Shown here: positions 16,342-60,424 of the stretch, piece by piece
Layout of the letters: the number at the start of each line of letters is the position of its first letter
Numbering within the stretch: position 1 is the stretch's first letter
From: an uncultured Alphaproteobacteria bacterium
Lineage (GTDB): Bacteria; Pseudomonadota; Alphaproteobacteria; Rhodobacterales; Rhodobacteraceae
NCBI GenBank assembly: GCA_963763295.1
Contig: CAVXOH010000017.1
Location: 7,465 to 71,464 of the forward strand
Reading direction: 5' to 3'
DNA length: 64,000 bases
Translations under genes and position numbers: made by a program
The notes under the pieces: model-generated
The model's database searches: none
Told to the model about the DNA's origin: nothing
Seen by the model: only the letters and a program-made list of their open reading frames with translations

Positions 16342-16400
16342 CACGCGCCTCCCGCCCCGACGACCCGAAATCTCGCGCCGCCCGATCCCCGGCATACGAG

Positions 16401-16472
16401 TCGTGCAAGCGTTGTGCATGAGTTCGTGCATGGATTGTGTATGAGCGAATTCAGCCATGTCGCTGTCGCCGC
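16401..16472. repeat. 11-bp-array element, family B copy 1
   Basis: GTGCA/GTGTA cores at 16403, 16414, 16426, 16437; the 36-bp flank matches 25297-25332 at 30/36. Confidence 0.8.
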
Positions 16473-16485
16473 AAGGGGAATTGAA

Positions 16486-24959: not shown

Positions 24960-25265
24960 GGAGCGAATCGAGGCGCCGCCGTTCGGCGCGCTTCGCGCTG
25001 CTGCTTGCATCCGACCGAAGCGGACCTTGGTCCGCGAGTTCCGGCCCGATCGGCCGACGGTCCAGTGGACCGTCGGCCGGGCCGTCGCCCGGAGCGCCAG
25101 CGCGGAGGGCGAGGGGGGTGCTGCCTGAACCGTCGGTCTCCAAGCCGGGCGCGGTCGCCCCGGGTGGCCGCGGCCGGCTTCGTCGACGGCCGAAGCCGGC
25201 AGGCGGCACCGTCCCGCAAGACGTCAGGCCGGGCGCTGGCGGACCCGGCGCAAAGGGTCAGGACA
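24960..25265. repeat. Multi-hairpin palindromic REP/MITE-like segment (family D)
   Basis: Perfect stems CGGCCGACGGTCC-agt-GGACCGTCGGCCG (25051-25079), GCGGACC-tt-GGTCCGC, GCCGGCTTCG-N8-CGAAGCCGGC; single copy in the window. Confidence 0.6.
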
Positions 25266-25274
25266 GAAGGCCAC

Positions 25275-25332
25275 TAGTTTGCGTTGTGCATGCCCCGTGC
25301 ATGAGCGGATCCCGCCATGTGGCTGTCGACGC
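25275..25332. repeat. 11-bp-array element, family B copy 2
   Basis: GTGCATG at 25286 and 25297, plus the flank shared with copy 1. Confidence 0.75.
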
Positions 25333-25365
25333 GGAGTTAATCCGCTCCGGCGCCCGAGGCCCGGC

Positions 25366-26662
25366 TCAGAGGCCGGGATAGATCGGGAAGCGGTCGCAGA
25401 GCGCCCTGACCTGCGCCTTGACGCCGGCCTCGACCTCTGCGTTGCCCTGCGGGCCGTTGGCGGCGAGGCCGTCGACGACCTGGACGATCATCGCTCCGAT
25501 CTGCGCGAACTCCGCCGCCCCGAAGCCTCGCGTCGTGCCGGCCGGCGTGCCGAGACGGACCCCGGAGGTGATCGTCGGCGGCTGCGGGTCGAACGGGATG
25601 CCATTCTTGTTGCAGGTGATGTGCGCCCGGCCGAGCGCGGCCTCGGCGTCCTTGCCGGTGACGTTCTTCGGGCGCAGGTCGACGAGCATCAGGTGGGTGT
25701 CGGTGCCGCCGGTGACGATGTCGAGCCCGCCCTTCATCAGCGTGTCCGCCAGCACCTGGGCGTTCTCCACCACCTGCGCGGCGTAACCGGCGAAGTCGGG
25801 ACGCAGCGCCTCGCCGAAGGCGACCGCCTTGCCGGCGATGACGTGCATCAGCGGGCCGCCCTGCAGGCCCGGGAAGATCGCCGAGTTGATCTTCTTGGCG
25901 ATGCCCTCGTCGTTGGTCAGGATCATGCCGCCGCGCGGCCCGCGCAGCGTCTTGTGCGTAGTCGTGGTGACGACGTGCGCGTGCTCGACCGGGTTCGGAT
26001 GCTGGCCGCCGGCGACGAGCCCGGCGAAGTGCGCCATGTCGACCATCAGGTACGCGCCGACCGAGTTCGGCGATCTCGCGGAACCGGGCGAAATCGATCC
26101 GCCGCGGGATCGCCGAGCCGCCGGCGATGATCAGCTTCGGCCTGTGCTCGGCCGCGAGCGTGGCGACGTCCTCGTAGTCGAGCCGCGAATCCTGCTTGCG
26201 CACGCCGTAGTGGACCGGCTTGAACCACTTGCCCGACATGTTGGGCTTGGCGCCGTGGGTCAGGTGGCCGCCTGACGCGAGGTCCATCGCGAGGAAGGTG
26301 TCGCCGGGCTGGAGCAGCGCGAGAAAGACGGCCTGGTTGGCCTGGCTGCCCGAGTTCGGCTGCACGTTGGCGAAGCCGGCGCCGAACAGGTTGCAGGCGC
26401 GCTCGATGGCCAGGTTCTCGGCGACGTCGACGAACTGGCACCCGCCGTAGTAGCGCCGGCCCGGGTAGCCCTCGGCGTACTTGTTGGTCATCACCGAGCC
26501 CTGCGCCTCGAGGACGGCGCGGCTCACGATGTTCTCCGAGGCGATCAGCTCGATCTCGTCGCGCTGGCGGGTCAGCTCGTCGCGGATCGCGCCGAAGATC
26601 GCCGGGTCGCGGGTGGCCAGATCGTCGGCGAAGAAGCCGCTGTCGGGAAGGATGTCTTTCAC
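25366..26662 (-). CDS. glyA: Serine hydroxymethyltransferase (one +1 frameshift near 26065)
   Basis: [29 protein letters not shown], then DMAHFAGLV and [13 protein letters not shown] in the next frame. Confidence 0.96.
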
Positions 26663-27682: not shown

Positions 27683-27797
27683 CGTTAACGATCCAATCCT
27701 GACCGTTTCAGGTGCCATATGGATTCCATATGCATTCCATACGCGTTCCAGATCGAGCGAATCCCCGTAAACCTTTGGCATCGAAGCCTTCACCCGG
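27683..27797 (+). repeat. 115-bp 11-bp-array element, family A copy 1
   Basis: 106/115 identical to the reverse complement of 45761-45875; four TTCCATAYG-type units at 11-bp period. Confidence 0.95.
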
Positions 27798-33159: not shown

Positions 33160-34088
33160 TGGCCGTCCTGATTCTCGCCAAGCACGACAACGCGCAATTG
33201 AACGACGCCACCGCCAAGACGGTGACCGCCGCGAAGCAGCTCGGCGGCGACATCACCGTCCTCGTCGCCGGCAAGGACTGCGCCGCCGTCGCCGAGGCCG
33301 CCGCGAAGCTCGACGGCGTGACGAGAGTGATCCACGTCGAGGGCGAGGGCTACGGACACCGCCTCGCCGAGCCCCTGACCGAGCTCGTCCGCGGCATGGC
33401 CGACGGCTACGAGCACATCGTCTTCCCGGCGACGACTTCGGGCAAGAACGTGGCGCCGAGGCTCGCCGCGCTCCTCGACGTCATGGTGATCTCCGACATC
33501 ACCGGCGTCGTCGGCCCCGATACCTTCGAGCGCCCGATCTACGCCGGCAACGCCATCCAGACCGTGCAGTCCTCGGACCCGAAGAAGGTGATCACCGTGC
33601 GAGGTGCCTCCTTCGCGGCGACCGGCGCGCAGGCTCCCGCCCCGATCGAGACCGGGCCCGCCGCCGCCGACCCCGGCGTCTCGTCCTGGGTCGAGGACAA
33701 GGTGGCGCGCTCCGACCGGCCCGAGCTCACCTCCGCCCGCATCGTCGTCTCCGGCGGCCGCGGTGTCGGCTCGGAGGAGAACTTCGCGATCATCGCCGCC
33801 CTCGCCGACAAGCTCGGCGCCGCGGTCGGCGCCTCGCGCGCCGCGGTCGACTCCGGCTACGCCCCGAACGACTGGCAGGTCGGCCAGACCGGCAAGGTCG
33901 TCGCCCCCGAGCTCTACATCGCCGTCGGCATCTCCGGCGCCATCCAGCACCTCGCCGGCATGAAGGACTCCAAGGTCATCGTCGCCATTAACAAGGACGA
34001 GGAGGCGCCGATCTTCCAGGTCGCCGACTACGGCCTCGTCGGCGACCTCTTCCAGATCGTCCCCGAGCTCGAGAAGAAGCTCGGCTAG
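33159..34088 (+). CDS. etfA: Electron transfer flavoprotein alpha subunit
   Basis: [36 protein letters not shown]. Confidence 0.97.
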
Positions 34089-34282
34089 AGCCGGATGGAT
34101 TCACGCCCGGGCGATGGCCATGCCCGAAAGTCCGAAGCATCGGCGATGCTGGGCCTCTTCAAGAACCGAAGCACCGTCGCGACGACTATCGGGTAACGAT
34201 GATTAACCGCCGATTGACTTGCGACGACGGCGCGCGCCCCTCTCGTTTCGACCGTCGACTGCCGGAATTGTGCCGCAGGCGT

Positions 34283-34356
34283 CCCTGTGGGGCAGCGGGC
34301 TCCTGCACGGATTTGGTGCATGGATTGTGCATGGGATGTGCATGGGTTGTGCATGC
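34283..34356. repeat. 11-bp-array element, family B copy 3
   Basis: GTGCATG at 34316, 34327, 34338, 34349 (exact 11-bp period); upstream flank similar to the reverse complement of copy 4. Confidence 0.85.
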
Positions 34357-34476
34357 CTCCCGGGACGTCACCCCCGGCGACTTTCCGAGCGAGATCCGCG
34401 CCTTGCCCGGCCCGTCAACCAAGGTTAACGCCAGCGCGGGCCGCATTCGGACTCCGACCAACTCCGCCGGCCGGGA

Positions 34477-35187
34477 TCAGGGCGATCCCCACCGCCCGGC
34501 GCGCGCCGCGATGGTGAGCTGGTAGTCGGCGTCGGCCTCTGACGTCGCCGTCACCAGCACGTAGTAGCGCGGCCCGTCGATCCGGCGCTCGACGAAGGTC
34601 GTGCGGACGCTGATCTGCTCGAAGGTCGGGGCGGTGCCGAGCGCCTGGCCGGCGTCATCGAAGAGCGTAAGACTGGCGCTCGCCTCCTGCACGACGAGGC
34701 TCGCGACGATCTCGCCCTTGAGCCCGGCCGGCACTTCCACCGTGAAGTAGTCGTGGTCGCCGGCCGCGAGCGTCCCGGTAATCGAGATCCCGAATGCGGC
34801 GCGGTTGGCGCCGGCCAGCGTGTCGTTCGGCTCGACCTCGGCGCCCTCGATCTCGATCCGCGCCGCGACCCGCCCGGGCAGGGGCGGCGGTGGCCCGGCC
34901 TCGGGCCCGGCGGCCGAGGGCGCCACCGCGACCGTGCGCTGCCCGTCGGCGGAGAGCGTGATCCCGGCGGCGAGCTCGGCCTCGGGCACTTGGGGCGCCT
35001 CCGCGGCGCGACGGTCGCCGGCGATCCAGGGCAGGAGCAGGAACCCGACCCCGGCGAGGAAGGCCGTCGCCGCGAGCACCGGCCGGTCCCGCAGTCGCAG
35101 CATCATCCACAGCCCGGCCAGCGCGAAGACGCCGCCGGCAACGAGGGCGACGGCGATCACAGCGTCAGGCACCGGAACGGCGTGCAT
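34477..35187 (-). CDS. Membrane-anchored protein with a PPC-like beta domain
   Basis: Two N-terminal TM segments, Pro-rich linker, EVEPNDT..GTLAAGDHDYF..YQLTI pattern. Confidence 0.6.
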   Translation of the reverse strand: MHAVPVPDAVIAVALVAGGVFALAGLWMMLRLRDRPVLAATAFLAGVGFLLLPWIAGDRRAAEAPQVPEAELAAGITLSADGQRTVAVAPSAAGPEAGPPPPLPGRVAARIEIEGAEVEPNDTLAGANRAAFGISITGTLAAGDHDYFTVEVPAGLKGEIVASLVVQEASASLTLFDDAGQALGTAPTFEQISVRTTFVERRIDGPRYYVLVTATSEADADYQLTIAARAGRWGSP

Positions 35188-35269
35188 CGGCAAGGGTCCG
35201 CGCGGGCGCCACGTGCGCCCGACGGGGCAGTCTAGCACCGGGGCGGGCAGTCTCCCAGCTCGGGCGCGA

Positions 35270-36700
35270 TCAGCTCTCGCGATACCAGATCGAATGCTCG
35301 ATCCTGTCGCCGAGCTCCGGGAAGTCGGCCGCATGGAACACCGGCTCGACCCCGGCCTTGCGCTGCGCGAAGTAGTCCCGTGTCAGCTTCACCACCGTCC
35401 CCGACAGCGCGACGATCGCGATCAGGTTGATCGTCGCCATCAGCCCCATCGAGGCGTCGGCGGTGTTGAAGACGGTCGCTACCGCCTGCAGCGCCCCCCA
35501 GACCACCATGGCGAGCACCGCGACGCGCAGCACGGTCAGGCCGGCGTTGCTGCCGACGCCGAGATAGACCATCGCCATCTCCGAGTACGAGTAGTTGCCG
35601 ATGATCGAGGTGAAGGCGAAGAAGAAGATTGCGATCGCGATGAAGTAGCTGCCGGCGGTGCCGATGTGTTCGCCCATCGCGGCCTGGGTCAGCTGCGTGC
35701 CGGTGACCTCGCTTCCGGGCACGTAAACGCTCGAGAGCAGGATCATGATCGCCGTGCAGGTGCAGATGACGATCGTGTCGATGAAGACGCCGAGCGCCTG
35801 CACGAACCCCTGGCTCGACGGGTGGTGCGGCACCGGGGTCGCCGCCGCGGCGATGTTCGGCGCCGAGCCCATCCCCGCCTCGTTCGAGAACAGCCCGCGC
35901 TTGACCCCGTTCAGCATCGCCGCCGCGACACCGCCGACAACGCCGCCGGCAACCTCGCGCAGGCCGAGCGCCGAGCCGACGATCAGGCTGAGCATCCCGG
36001 GAACCTCCGACAGGTTGGTAACGAGCACGTAGAGCGCGACGAGCAGGTAGATGCCGGCCATGAACGGCACGACATACTCGGCCACCTGGGCGATCTTGTG
36101 GATGCCGCCGAAGATCACCACTGCGGTGACCGCCGCCACCACCAGTCCGGTGGCGATCTTCGGCACCCCGAAGGCACCGACCATGGCGTCGGCGATGGAG
36201 TTGGCCTGCACCGCGTTGAACACGAGGCCGAAGGACAGGATGAGGCAGGCCGAGAAGATCGCGCCAAGCCACGGCATCCCGAGACCTCTGGCGATATAGA
36301 ACGCCGGCCCGCCGCGGTAAATGCCCTCCGAGCCCGCCGGCCCGTGCACCTTGTAGAGCTGCGCGAGCGTCGATTCCGAGTAGGCCGTCGCCATGCCGAC
36401 CAGAGCCACCATCCACATCCAGAAGATCGCGCCCGGGCCGCCGAGGGTCAGCGCCACCGCGACGCCGGCGATGTTGCCGGTGCCGACCCGGCTCGCGAGG
36501 CTGGTGCAGAGTGCTTGGAACGGCGAGATCCCCTCCTTGTCGGTCTGCGGCGCGTTGGTCACGACACGGAACATCTCGCCGAAATGCAGGATCTGCTGGA
36601 AGCGAAGCCGAACGGTGAAGTAGACGCCGACCGCCAGCAGGCCGTAGATCAGCACATAGCCCCAGAAGATCGTGTTCAGGAAGTCGATGATCGCGTTCAT
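35270..36700 (-). CDS. Alanine/glycine:cation symporter (AGCS/AlsT)
   Basis: SRVGTGNIAG, GGPGAIFWMW, RGLFSNEAGMGSAP, DTIVICT. Confidence 0.95.
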   Translation of the reverse strand: MNAIIDFLNTIFWGYVLIYGLLAVGVYFTVRLRFQQILHFGEMFRVVTNAPQTDKEGISPFQALCTSLASRVGTGNIAGVAVALTLGGPGAIFWMWMVALVGMATAYSESTLAQLYKVHGPAGSEGIYRGGPAFYIARGLGMPWLGAIFSACLILSFGLVFNAVQANSIADAMVGAFGVPKIATGLVVAAVTAVVIFGGIHKIAQVAEYVVPFMAGIYLLVALYVLVTNLSEVPGMLSLIVGSALGLREVAGGVVGGVAAAMLNGVKRGLFSNEAGMGSAPNIAAAATPVPHHPSSQGFVQALGVFIDTIVICTCTAIMILLSSVYVPGSEVTGTQLTQAAMGEHIGTAGSYFIAIAIFFFAFTSIIGNYSYSEMAMVYLGVGSNAGLTVLRVAVLAMVVWGALQAVATVFNTADASMGLMATINLIAIVALSGTVVKLTRDYFAQRKAGVEPVFHAADFPELGDRIEHSIWYRES

Positions 36701-36847: not shown

Positions 36848-37723
36848 ATGGAGATCAAGCGCATCGGCGTGATCGGTGCCGGCCAGATGGGCAACGGCAT
36901 CGCCCACGTGTTCGCGCTCGCGGGCTTCGACGTCGAGCTGCACGACGTCTCCGAGGCGGCGCTCAAGGCGGCGCCGGAGATCATCCGCGGCAACATCGAC
37001 CGGCAGGTGCATCGCGGCCGCGTCAGCGAGGCCGAGCGCGACGCAGCGCTCGCCCGCATCCGGATCGAGCGCGATCTCGCGCCCCTCGGCGCCACTGACC
37101 TCGTCATCGAGGCGGCGACCGAGAAGGAGCCGCTCAAGCACAAGATCTTCGCGGCGCTGGTGCCGCACCTCGCGCCGCACACGATCCTGACCTCGAACAC
37201 CTCATCGATCTCGATCACCCGGCTCGCGAGCGGCACCGACCGCCCCGAGCGGTTCATGGGCTTTCACTTCATGAATCCGGTGCCGGTGATGCAGCTCGTC
37301 GAGCTCATCCGCGGCATCGCCACCGACGAGGCGACCTACGAGACGCTACTCGAGGTGGTGCAGAAGATCGGCAAGACCGCGTCTCCGGCCGAGGACTTCC
37401 CGGCCTTCATCGTCAACCGCATCCTGGTGCCGATGATGAACGAGGCGGTCTATACGCTCTACGAGGGCGTCGGCACCGTCGCCTCGATCGACATGGCGCT
37501 CAAGCTCGGCGCCAACCACCCGATGGGGCCGCTCGAGCTCGCTGACTTCATCGGCCTCGACACCTGCCTCGCCATCATGAATGTGCTGCACGAGGGGCTT
37601 GCCGACACCAAATATCGTCCCTGCCCGCTCCTGGTGAAGTACGTCGAGGCCGGCTGGCTCGGCCGCAAGACCAAGCGCGGCTTCTACGACTACCGCGGCG
37701 AGAAGCCGGTCCCGACGCGCTGA
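36848..37723 (+). CDS. hbd: 3-hydroxybutyryl-CoA dehydrogenase
   Basis: GAGQMGNGIA, IEAATE, SNTSS, HFMNP, FIVNR, NHPMGP. Confidence 0.94.
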   Translation: MEIKRIGVIGAGQMGNGIAHVFALAGFDVELHDVSEAALKAAPEIIRGNIDRQVHRGRVSEAERDAALARIRIERDLAPLGATDLVIEAATEKEPLKHKIFAALVPHLAPHTILTSNTSSISITRLASGTDRPERFMGFHFMNPVPVMQLVELIRGIATDEATYETLLEVVQKIGKTASPAEDFPAFIVNRILVPMMNEAVYTLYEGVGTVASIDMALKLGANHPMGPLELADFIGLDTCLAIMNVLHEGLADTKYRPCPLLVKYVEAGWLGRKTKRGFYDYRGEKPVPTR

Positions 37724-37814: not shown

Positions 37815-37880
37815 AATCGCATGCACAACACATGCACAAGTCATGCACCGATCATATGCGCGAATCCCGCACCCCAAGGG
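37815..37880. repeat. 11-bp-array element, family B copy 4 (opposite strand)
   Basis: TGCAC at 37822, 37833, 37844. Confidence 0.8.
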
Positions 37881-45760: not shown

Positions 45761-45875
45761 CCGGGGGAAGACTTCGATGTGAAAGGTTTACGCGGATTCG
45801 CTCGATCTGGAACGCGTATGGAAGCCATATGGAAACCGTATGGCACCTGAAACGGTCAGGATTGGATCGTTAACG
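45761..45875 (-). repeat. Family A element copy 2
   Basis: Reverse complement of 27683-27797 at about 92% identity. Confidence 0.95.
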
Positions 45876-60326: not shown

Positions 60327-60424
60327 TATCAAAGGTTTACGAGGATCCGCGCGATATGGAACCCGTATGGAACCCATATGGAATGCGTATGGGTAGCAAA
60401 AGACTCGGGATTGAATCGTTAAGG
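60325..60424 (-). repeat. Family A element copy 3 (diverged)
   Basis: Ungapped match to copy 1 at about 77/100; 11-bp units and both ends (TTAACGAT, GTAAACCTTTG) kept. Confidence 0.88.

Follow-up and report, generated by a model that had tools for sequence, protein, structure and literature searches.

Helically phased GTGCATG arrays form the core of dispersed repeat families at gene 3′ ends in an uncultured Rhodobacteraceae genome and may act as protein-binding platforms

Why does a heptamer, GTGCATG, recur at a step of about 11 bp just past the ends of unrelated genes? The question arose at positions 16,401 to 16,472 of the window, i.e., the whole stretch of 64,000 nucleotides analyzed here (contig CAVXOH010000017.1). 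An earlier reading of the DNA, hereafter the sequence-only reading, had described four such arrays with two to four units each, and all four were recovered at those places. GTGCATG occurs 17 times in the window versus 6.3 ± 2.8 times in shuffled sequences, a count that was reached in 0 of 100 shuffles. The arrays and the genes they adjoin are as follows.

16392..16443, plus strand: array copy 1 (leading GCATACG, then GTGCAAG, GTGCATG, GTGCATG, GTGTATG)
16444..16485, plus strand: F2-type right flank of copy 1 (AGCGAATTCAGCCATGTCGCTGTCGCC...), reaching the glpX stop codon
16486-17451, minus strand: glpX, ending beside array copy 1
25286..25345, plus strand: array copy 2 (two exact GTGCATG, then the F2 right flank GAGCGGATCCCGCCATGTGGCTGTCGACGCGGAG)
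ending at 25366, minus strand: SHMT gene glyA, frameshifted, beside copy 2
34111..34435, plus strand: complete F1 element of ~325 bp, holding copy 3
34316..34355, plus strand: array copy 3 (four exact GTGCATG at 11-bp spacing, within the F1 element)
37820..37859, minus strand: array copy 4 (three exact GTGCATG plus an in-phase leading GCATATG)
36848-37723, plus strand: hbd (3-hydroxyacyl-CoA dehydrogenase), ending next to copy 4

Copy 1, which is array A85 of the genome scan (C17:23867-23907), has four units at 16403-16443 on the plus strand, two of them one base off, at an 11-bp period with a single 12-bp step; the weaker GCATACG leads in phase at 16392. The exact units of copy 2 (25286-25292 and 25297-25303, plus strand) precede a flank that is common to copies 1 and 2, as had been claimed, and that corresponds to the right flank of a repeat family, F2 (AGCGRATYC.GCCATGT.GCTGTCG); the left half of the F2 element at copy 2 is degenerate. 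A shared flank had also been claimed for copies 3 and 4 and was unconfirmed: copy 3 belongs to an element of family F1, located between etfA (plus strand, ending at 34088) and a minus-strand gene (34477-35334), and copy 4 falls in a separate minor flank group with C2:42540 and C12:61963. Copy 4 starts 97 bp past the hbd stop codon (37723), with exact units at 37820-37848 and the GCATATG unit at 37853-37859 (CATATGC on the plus strand). In agreement with the sequence-only reading, all four arrays read CATGCAC on the transcript of the adjoining gene end (glpX, glyA, the gene at 34477-35334, and hbd), but the label "PPC-like" given to the third of these genes found no Pfam match. Just upstream of the F2 copy that follows glyA, window positions 24980-25284 belong to a separate repeat family of ~200 to 300 bp, with further copies at C19:182882, C6:88689, C5:225331, C19:103446, C16:24908, and C12:67123. 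The family is also present in the relatives G014 and G002, and several of its copies adjoin other arrays.

The genome-wide motif scan that had been proposed as a check was run on the host genome, an Amaricoccus-like assembly of 5.24 Mb with 70% GC in 21 contigs. Calling an array at three units or more, with one mismatch per unit allowed and steps of 10 to 12 bp, returned 118 arrays, i.e., ~1 per 44 kb, whereas the reversed motif returned 0 in the same genome and, among >450 other genomes, 0 except for 2 in G002. The elements contain three to five head-to-tail units with the consensus TTGTGCATGNN, spaced by 11 bp, the length of one helical turn. The unit logo reads T (64%), T/C, GTGCAT, G/A, N, N; GTGCAT is invariant, the spacers are variable, and the step is 11 bp in nearly all cases. 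A weaker GCATATG unit leads most arrays, and TTAAC/GTTAACC and GANTC motifs usually flank them on both sides. Gene calls are approximate in this frameshift-prone metagenome-assembled genome (MAG), and the frameshifts account for a coding density of only 74%. Several conserved genes are split in this manner, namely, glyA (window 25337-26662), dnaA (C20:24165-24651), and an aminotransferase gene (C18, about 170,000-171,250), likely as a result of long-read assembly errors.

Sorting by flanking sequence placed the arrays at the core of three or more dispersed repeat families, with solo arrays besides. F1 elements (~325 bp, 33 to 36 copies) are 82 to 90% identical and lie beside unrelated genes. 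F2 (~110 to 160 bp, 32 copies) consists of AATCCTGACTCTTTTCCTTAGCATATGAGTT, the array, and then AGCGAATCCCGCCATGTGGCTGTCGACGCGG, whereas F3 (~110 to 160 bp, 33 copies) starts with CGTTAACCTTCCGG..., followed by the array and ..GGAATCGCCGTTAACCCTTGCGGCGCAAGCGAATCCC. Both ends of F3 carry a constant CGTTAACC, which could belong to the element itself or represent a fixed target. The remaining ~20 arrays have other flanks or none. A sister element with a different unit, Family A, also occurs in the window.

27683..27797, plus strand: Family A element (GTTAAC, AATCCTGAC, four 11-bp units, GAGCGAATCC.CGTAAACCTTTG)
starting near 45805 and near 60354: further Family A copies

The Family A unit is TTCCATAYG where the GTGCATG (B-type) arrays have TTGTGCATG, and the two kinds of element have a common scaffold of TTAAC, ~30 bp, four 11-bp units, GAATC, and GTTAACC. 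There are 65 Family A arrays genome-wide, with the distance from TTAAC to GTAAACC fixed at 89 bp; only a long subset has CTCTGA...TCAGAG ends. Two Family A copies (C5:58,940-59,070, locus L185, and C2:91,373) lie 18 to 20 bp from an IS5/IS427-type end (...GCACCCTAG), which suggests a shared target preference or nested insertion. The GTTAAC hexamer itself is found 236 times in the whole genome, 203 of them intergenic and largely inside repeat elements (in the window, e.g., at 27684-27689 and 34424-34429), and its spacings peak at element sizes (80 to 89 bp for F3 and 220 to 229 bp for F1). Since called genes contain only 33 copies versus the ~240 that we estimate from base composition, GTTAAC seems to be avoided elsewhere, which suggests, for example, a restriction system or CtrA-type half-sites.

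Virtually all arrays (117 of 118) are intergenic, a single one falling within a called gene. They are placed between convergent (62), tandem (50), or divergent (6) gene pairs, so that a gene 3′ end flanks 112 of the 118 on one side or both; no gene family recurs among the neighbors apart from ABC ATPases and LacI-type regulators. Orientation was assessed with a symmetric test that considered coding ORFs ending within 200 bp on either side of the array. For 60 arrays the sole adjoining gene end belonged to an opposite-strand gene just downstream, whose transcript reads CATGCAC, compared with 11 arrays whose sole adjoining end was that of a same-strand gene just upstream; of the rest, 24 had both gene ends and 23 had neither. 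F1 is asymmetric by construction, and we therefore also give the count with this family removed, which is 32 versus 11 in favor of CATGCAC on the transcript (binomial estimate, p ~0.002). The orientation rule extrapolated from the four window copies thus holds genome-wide as a tendency (74 to 85%) and fails as an absolute rule. The stop codon lies at a median of 48 bp past the array in F2/F3 and 92 bp in F1, which corresponds to the right edge of the element. At C10:94,440-94,640 (L188), an F3 element takes up all of the DNA that separates two co-directional genes, with GGAAGGTTAACGG at its end; as this sequence immediately precedes the ATG of the next gene, the element may supply its ribosome-binding site.

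Array polarity also follows the strand composition of the chromosome. The GTGCATG strand is the locally C-rich strand in 95 of the 118 arrays (flanks of ±1 to 10 kb, p ~1e-12), and this link is independent of the gene-abutment class. The sign of the skew is equal on both flanks of an array, whichever way the flanking genes run, and genes are split 49:51 relative to skew, so that a bias in gene strand does not account for the orientation. Gene-by-gene decomposition accordingly separated a strand term from a small coding term. In a second genome (G042, a 2.75-Mb contig), 26 of 26 arrays oppose the local 20-kb skew, including those within locally inverted skew segments. The host origin, which lies outside the window, was located from gene order and DnaA boxes.

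C8:153,500-154,000: likely oriC (DnaA boxes TTTTCCACA, TTATCCACA, and TTATCCACG)

Gene order at this site is canonical (parB-parA-gidB-gidA-trmE-rho-hemJ, DnaA boxes, maf-aroE-coaE-dnaQ). Strand-specific GC skew has a positive sign to the left of this site and a negative one to the right, whereas origins usually show the opposite. Arrays at the host oriC follow the skew and not the position relative to the origin, and those near rho in G042 and G044 point the other way. When oriC, rho, and a dif-like site were used to tell the leading from the lagging strand, the results conflicted, and for this reason polarity is stated here relative to skew only. The dif-like sequence (CGCATAACGAAGATTATGTTGTGT) is in an intergenic gap at C4:270,437; near it, A- and B-type arrays switch from mostly plus to minus, but GC skew does not switch.

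The units are conserved to a degree that sets them apart from the elements that carry them. F1 copies were gathered by BLAST with the left flank as the only query, so that the sample is unbiased by the array. In these copies, the core (24 GTGCAT columns) has 2 substituted cells out of 786, compared with 967 out of 9,372 in the other 285 columns (p = 1e-32), i.e., conservation of the GTGCAT cores exceeds that of the remaining F1 sequence ~40-fold; for the TTAAC blocks, it is about double the average of the element. Singleton substitutions are likewise scarce in the core (2 versus 17.7 expected; p = 4e-6), and one F1 copy lacks exactly one 11-bp unit. Among 14 sites that are syntenic on both flanks and bear arrays in other genomes, 5 are occupied in the host genome (3 by B-type and 2 by A-type arrays), compared with a background of ~4% (p = 2e-4). 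At the C10:94577 site, TTAACC and the GTGCAT cores are kept in three genomes whose inner spacers are unalignable and whose coding flanks are ~83 to 85% identical by BLAST. An array also lies 10 to 19 nt past the gltD stop codon in three Rhodobacterales lineages, with equal relative orientation; it is A-type in the host genome and B-type in a Paracoccus-labelled MAG and in another Rhodobacterales MAG. Comparison of contig L037 with C19:420941 revealed cores that persist and TTAAC ends and spacers that have decayed. These alignments suggest that purifying selection keeps the GTGCAT cores intact, although gene conversion or selection among element lineages could contribute to their conservation.

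The distribution of the arrays is patchy. They were found in 11 of 401 near-complete Rhodobacterales genomes, representing 8 of 138 genera. Within the genus, B-type arrays number 0 in ~14 genomes, 13 to 36 in five, and 119 in the host genome. Across roughly 30 congeners, A counts span 0 to 33; A and B counts are independent, with 22 A and 0 B in G023 and 0 A and 36 B in G014. From a host function, a distribution as patchy as that of the arrays would not be expected. Among cultured Rhodobacterales, the exact three-unit pattern occurs in Vannielia, Thalassovita, Lacimonas, Cognatishimia, and Halocynthiibacter, and the carriers include Thalassovita taeanensis DSM 22007, Vannielia litorea, Lacimonas salitolerans, and Halocynthiibacter styelae. 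It was also detected in many Amaricoccus-like and other alphaproteobacterial MAGs, and many alphaproteobacterial MAGs with the pattern have the TTAACC-array-GTTAACC layout. Two contigs filed as uncultured Solirubrobacterales MAGs are 95 to 99% (L071) and ~85% (L037) identical to the host genome, orthologous arrays included, and are probably mis-binned or mislabelled.

Searches against known classes of sequence were consistent with the statement of the sequence-only reading that no named family matches, in that neither Rfam, plasmids, nor IS ends provided a match and literature searches for the motif and similar elements returned nothing relevant. Rfam 15 yielded 0 matches at the gathering score for the window and 0 at E ≤ 1 for an F1 copy, and a known RNA family was rejected accordingly. 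Folding of the F2, F3, and Family A consensus sequences on both strands (0 to -9.3 kcal/mol) gave no conserved RNA or single-stranded DNA structure, only trivial GCATGC pairings and no stable imperfect-palindrome hairpin; a structured RNA or single-stranded DNA hairpin was discarded on these grounds. Neither a sigma-70-like promoter nor an intrinsic terminator was found in F1, and stops interrupt all three reverse and two of the three forward frames, the open forward frame being attributable to chance at 70% GC. Plasmid iterons were rejected as well, given that F3 and F1 have no plasmid matches and that rep or par genes do not recur as neighbors.

[quoted passage not shown] The palindromic GTTAAC is the only terminal inverted repeat, the outer flanks being unmatched in inverted orientation, and the borders of aligned copies show no variable direct repeats of the kind left by target-site duplication; at the glyA site, the intergenic DNA of divergent congeners is unalignable for an empty-site comparison. 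None of the 10 multi-copy IS families of the host genome (IS630, IS5, IS481, IS3, IS91, IS1182, IS110, IS256, and others) shares the ends of the F1, F2, F3, or Family A elements. Moreover, IS91-family transposase is absent from the array-rich G013, G014, G016, G022, and G023 and present in several array-free congeners. An autonomous partner was accordingly not found among the IS families compared. Because inverted repeats, target duplications, and an autonomous partner were not found, mobility is deduced solely from copy number and patchiness. Nonetheless, the carriers have evidently spread in the manner of mobile DNA, given their high copy number, the unrelated contexts in which they sit, and their patchy expansion.

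The explanation that best accommodates these data, to which we assign a probability of roughly 0.5, is that the arrays belong to mobile mosaic elements and constitute a helically phased, polar, putative protein-binding platform maintained by selection. The sequence-only reading had offered phased binding sites spread as a mobile unit as one of two options, and the 11-bp period, the invariant cores, the presence in at least three families, and the lack of a fold make this option the best fit. According to this model, which is built on comparative sequence evidence, the arrays would be the functional core of small, non-coding, dispersed mosaic elements that multiplied within a few Rhodobacterales lineages. 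Each array would work as DNA, offering a sequence-specific protein a docking platform that is head-to-tail, one-faced, and cooperative. The protein would probably be an accessory factor that varies in presence between lineages, and the TTCCATAYG units of Family A would represent a second specificity class on the common scaffold. The reasons to propose a binding platform are the strict phasing, the invariant 6-bp cores separated by free spacers, the lack of a fold, the interchange of two unit types on a common scaffold and at a single site, and the conservation in place. The elements would persist almost only just past stop codons, with polarity fixed relative to both the gene and strand asymmetry, and purifying selection would preserve their cores in place. 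Speculatively, the function might be that of a polar nucleoprotein block at gene ends, i.e., a roadblock to transcription or replication or the boundary of a domain, and such a polar roadblock or boundary might be the reason for a single orientation after stop codons.

A broader version of the platform model, in which some Rhodobacterales possess an undescribed genome-wide "phased-iteron" system, is rather unlikely. Its 7-mers would come in no fewer than two interchangeable specificity classes (GTGCATG and TCCATAYG), with three to five of them in helical phase per dispersed array; a dedicated protein would read each class, and small mobile scaffolds would have spread the arrays. Selection would keep the arrays in one orientation with respect to transcription and strand asymmetry at gene ends, where they might serve as polar nucleoprotein boundaries that, for example, block read-through and let replication pass, or organize the chromosome. 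If the arrays are protein-docking platforms under selection, they would provide a handle on how high-GC alphaproteobacteria mark gene ends, on how mobile DNA is domesticated as cis-regulatory or architectural sequence, and on what sets chromosomal strand polarity.

The strongest competitor, still rather unlikely in our judgment, is that the elements are purely selfish non-autonomous transposons, with the array as a multi-site region bound in trans by a transposase or recombinase and with no host function. Their many copies beside unrelated genes and the extreme patchiness among congeners and across the order fit this scenario. Polarity would then result from replication-coupled insertion as in IS200/IS605, IS91, and IS110; IS91- and IS110-family elements are present in the host genome, and a strong replication-linked orientation bias of IS200, IS91, and IS110 is documented in Proteobacteria (PMC3971601). 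Against it, the palindromic GTTAAC aside, no terminal inverted repeats, target-site duplications, or subterminal hairpins were found, the ends of F1, F2, F3, and A recur in none of the 10 multi-copy IS families, and IS91 is missing from array-rich relatives and found in array-free ones. In addition, neutrality after insertion predicts neither singletons that avoid the cores nor orthologous cores that outlast TTAAC ends and spacers.

Less probable still is an element acting at the RNA level, the second option of the sequence-only reading. In this scenario, a 3′-untranslated or intercistronic (CAUGCAC N4)n tract, periodic, C-rich, and unstructured, would serve as a Rho-loading (rut-like) site or as a set of sites for an RNA-binding protein. 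The gene-orientation bias of 74 to 85% would also fit an RNA-level function: the elements begin at the stop codon and place CATGCAC on the transcript in 60 versus 11 cases (32 versus 11 without F1) and in 4 of 4 in the window. However, about one-quarter of the unambiguous copies are in the opposite orientation, and the link to strand skew, being independent of gene orientation, is unexplained at the RNA level. Base composition cuts both ways, as C exceeds G on the CATGCAC strand within the array, but over whole elements this strand is neither C-rich nor G-poor (C, 0.26 to 0.32; G, 0.29 to 0.36). The element at the C10:94577 site, which spans a whole co-directional gap with GGAAGG just before the next start codon, is compatible with a role in the transcript, whereas A-type arrays, which are built on the common scaffold and occur at gltD as well, would read as purine-rich UAUGGAA repeats and thus give a different RNA. 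The lack of a conserved fold further weakens this alternative. Finally, weak DnaA-box arrays that bind DnaA-ATP oligomers as datA-like titration or regulatory sites are highly improbable: in reverse complement, the unit TGTGCATGN reads NCATGCACA, which holds the DnaA-box core ATNCACA, 7 of 9 positions match TTATNCACA, and 9 + 2 bp make up the 11-bp repeat, much as the low-affinity 9-mers at the Escherichia coli oriC stand 2 bp apart, but the host oriC has classical boxes (TTATCCACA, TTTTCCACA) and no GTGCATG arrays, A-type units are unlike a DnaA box, the "N" base of the box is invariant and position 2 is always C in the arrays, which indicates a different readout, and DnaA is universal whereas the arrays occur in <3% of the order's genomes.

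How, then, would phased platforms of this kind relate to systems already described? With KOPS, Chi, and the IS200, IS91, and IS110 elements they share a strong strand-specific orientation that follows GC skew (80 to 100%), but the arrays are intergenic and multi-unit, occur at ~1 per 44 kb, and have their motif on the C-rich strand. IS200 and IS91 differ further, in that no HUH-type hairpin ends were found here and IS91 does not co-occur with the arrays. The 11-bp repeats of plasmid R1 parC and the RctB 11/12-mers are tandem short direct repeats, spaced by roughly one helical turn, to which a dedicated protein binds in a cooperative manner. The arrays resemble these iteron and centromere repeats in the tandem, one-turn layout and in having several specificity classes on a common architecture (A versus B), while differing in being dispersed over the chromosome, away from rep or par genes, and without plasmid matches.

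Operators of the OmpR/PhoB/CtrA type are also direct repeats, as in the pho box (7 bp + 4 bp) and the CtrA site TTAA-N7-TTAA. They have in common with the arrays a conserved stretch of 6 to 7 bp followed by a variable one of 4 to 5 bp, an 11-bp head-to-tail period, 2 to 4 units, a T-rich spacer end, and, flanking the arrays, the half-site-like TTAAC motifs. On the other hand, the arrays lie outside promoters (6 of 118 between divergent genes) in >100 copies on repeat elements, and GTGCATG matches no published operator that we found.

In lifestyle, the elements resemble MITEs or bacterial interspersed mosaic elements (BIMEs). Like MITEs, they are small and non-coding, number in the tens of copies, expanded patchily among lineages, and lie next to stop codons; they depart from MITEs in that neither inverted repeats at the termini nor target-site duplications were found and their ends match those of no resident IS compared, and an internal phased array under putative selection is a non-MITE feature. 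The BIME/REP sequences of enterobacteria are short, high-copy, non-coding, and intergenic at gene 3′ ends, especially between convergent genes, and the BIME core binds proteins, namely, IHF, gyrase, and Pol I. The elements described here are likewise non-coding, high-copy, and intergenic at gene 3′ ends, and they too are modular mosaics with a common core and variable flanks. They differ from BIMEs in having head-to-tail 11-bp direct repeats with no predicted hairpin in place of an imperfect palindrome, an orientation locked to strand asymmetry, and cores whose conservation far exceeds that of the remaining element. Should the arrays indeed be docking platforms that selection maintains, the intergenic elements of bacteria would gain a class that is built on phased direct repeats instead of palindromes and combines interchangeable specificities with strict chromosomal polarity.
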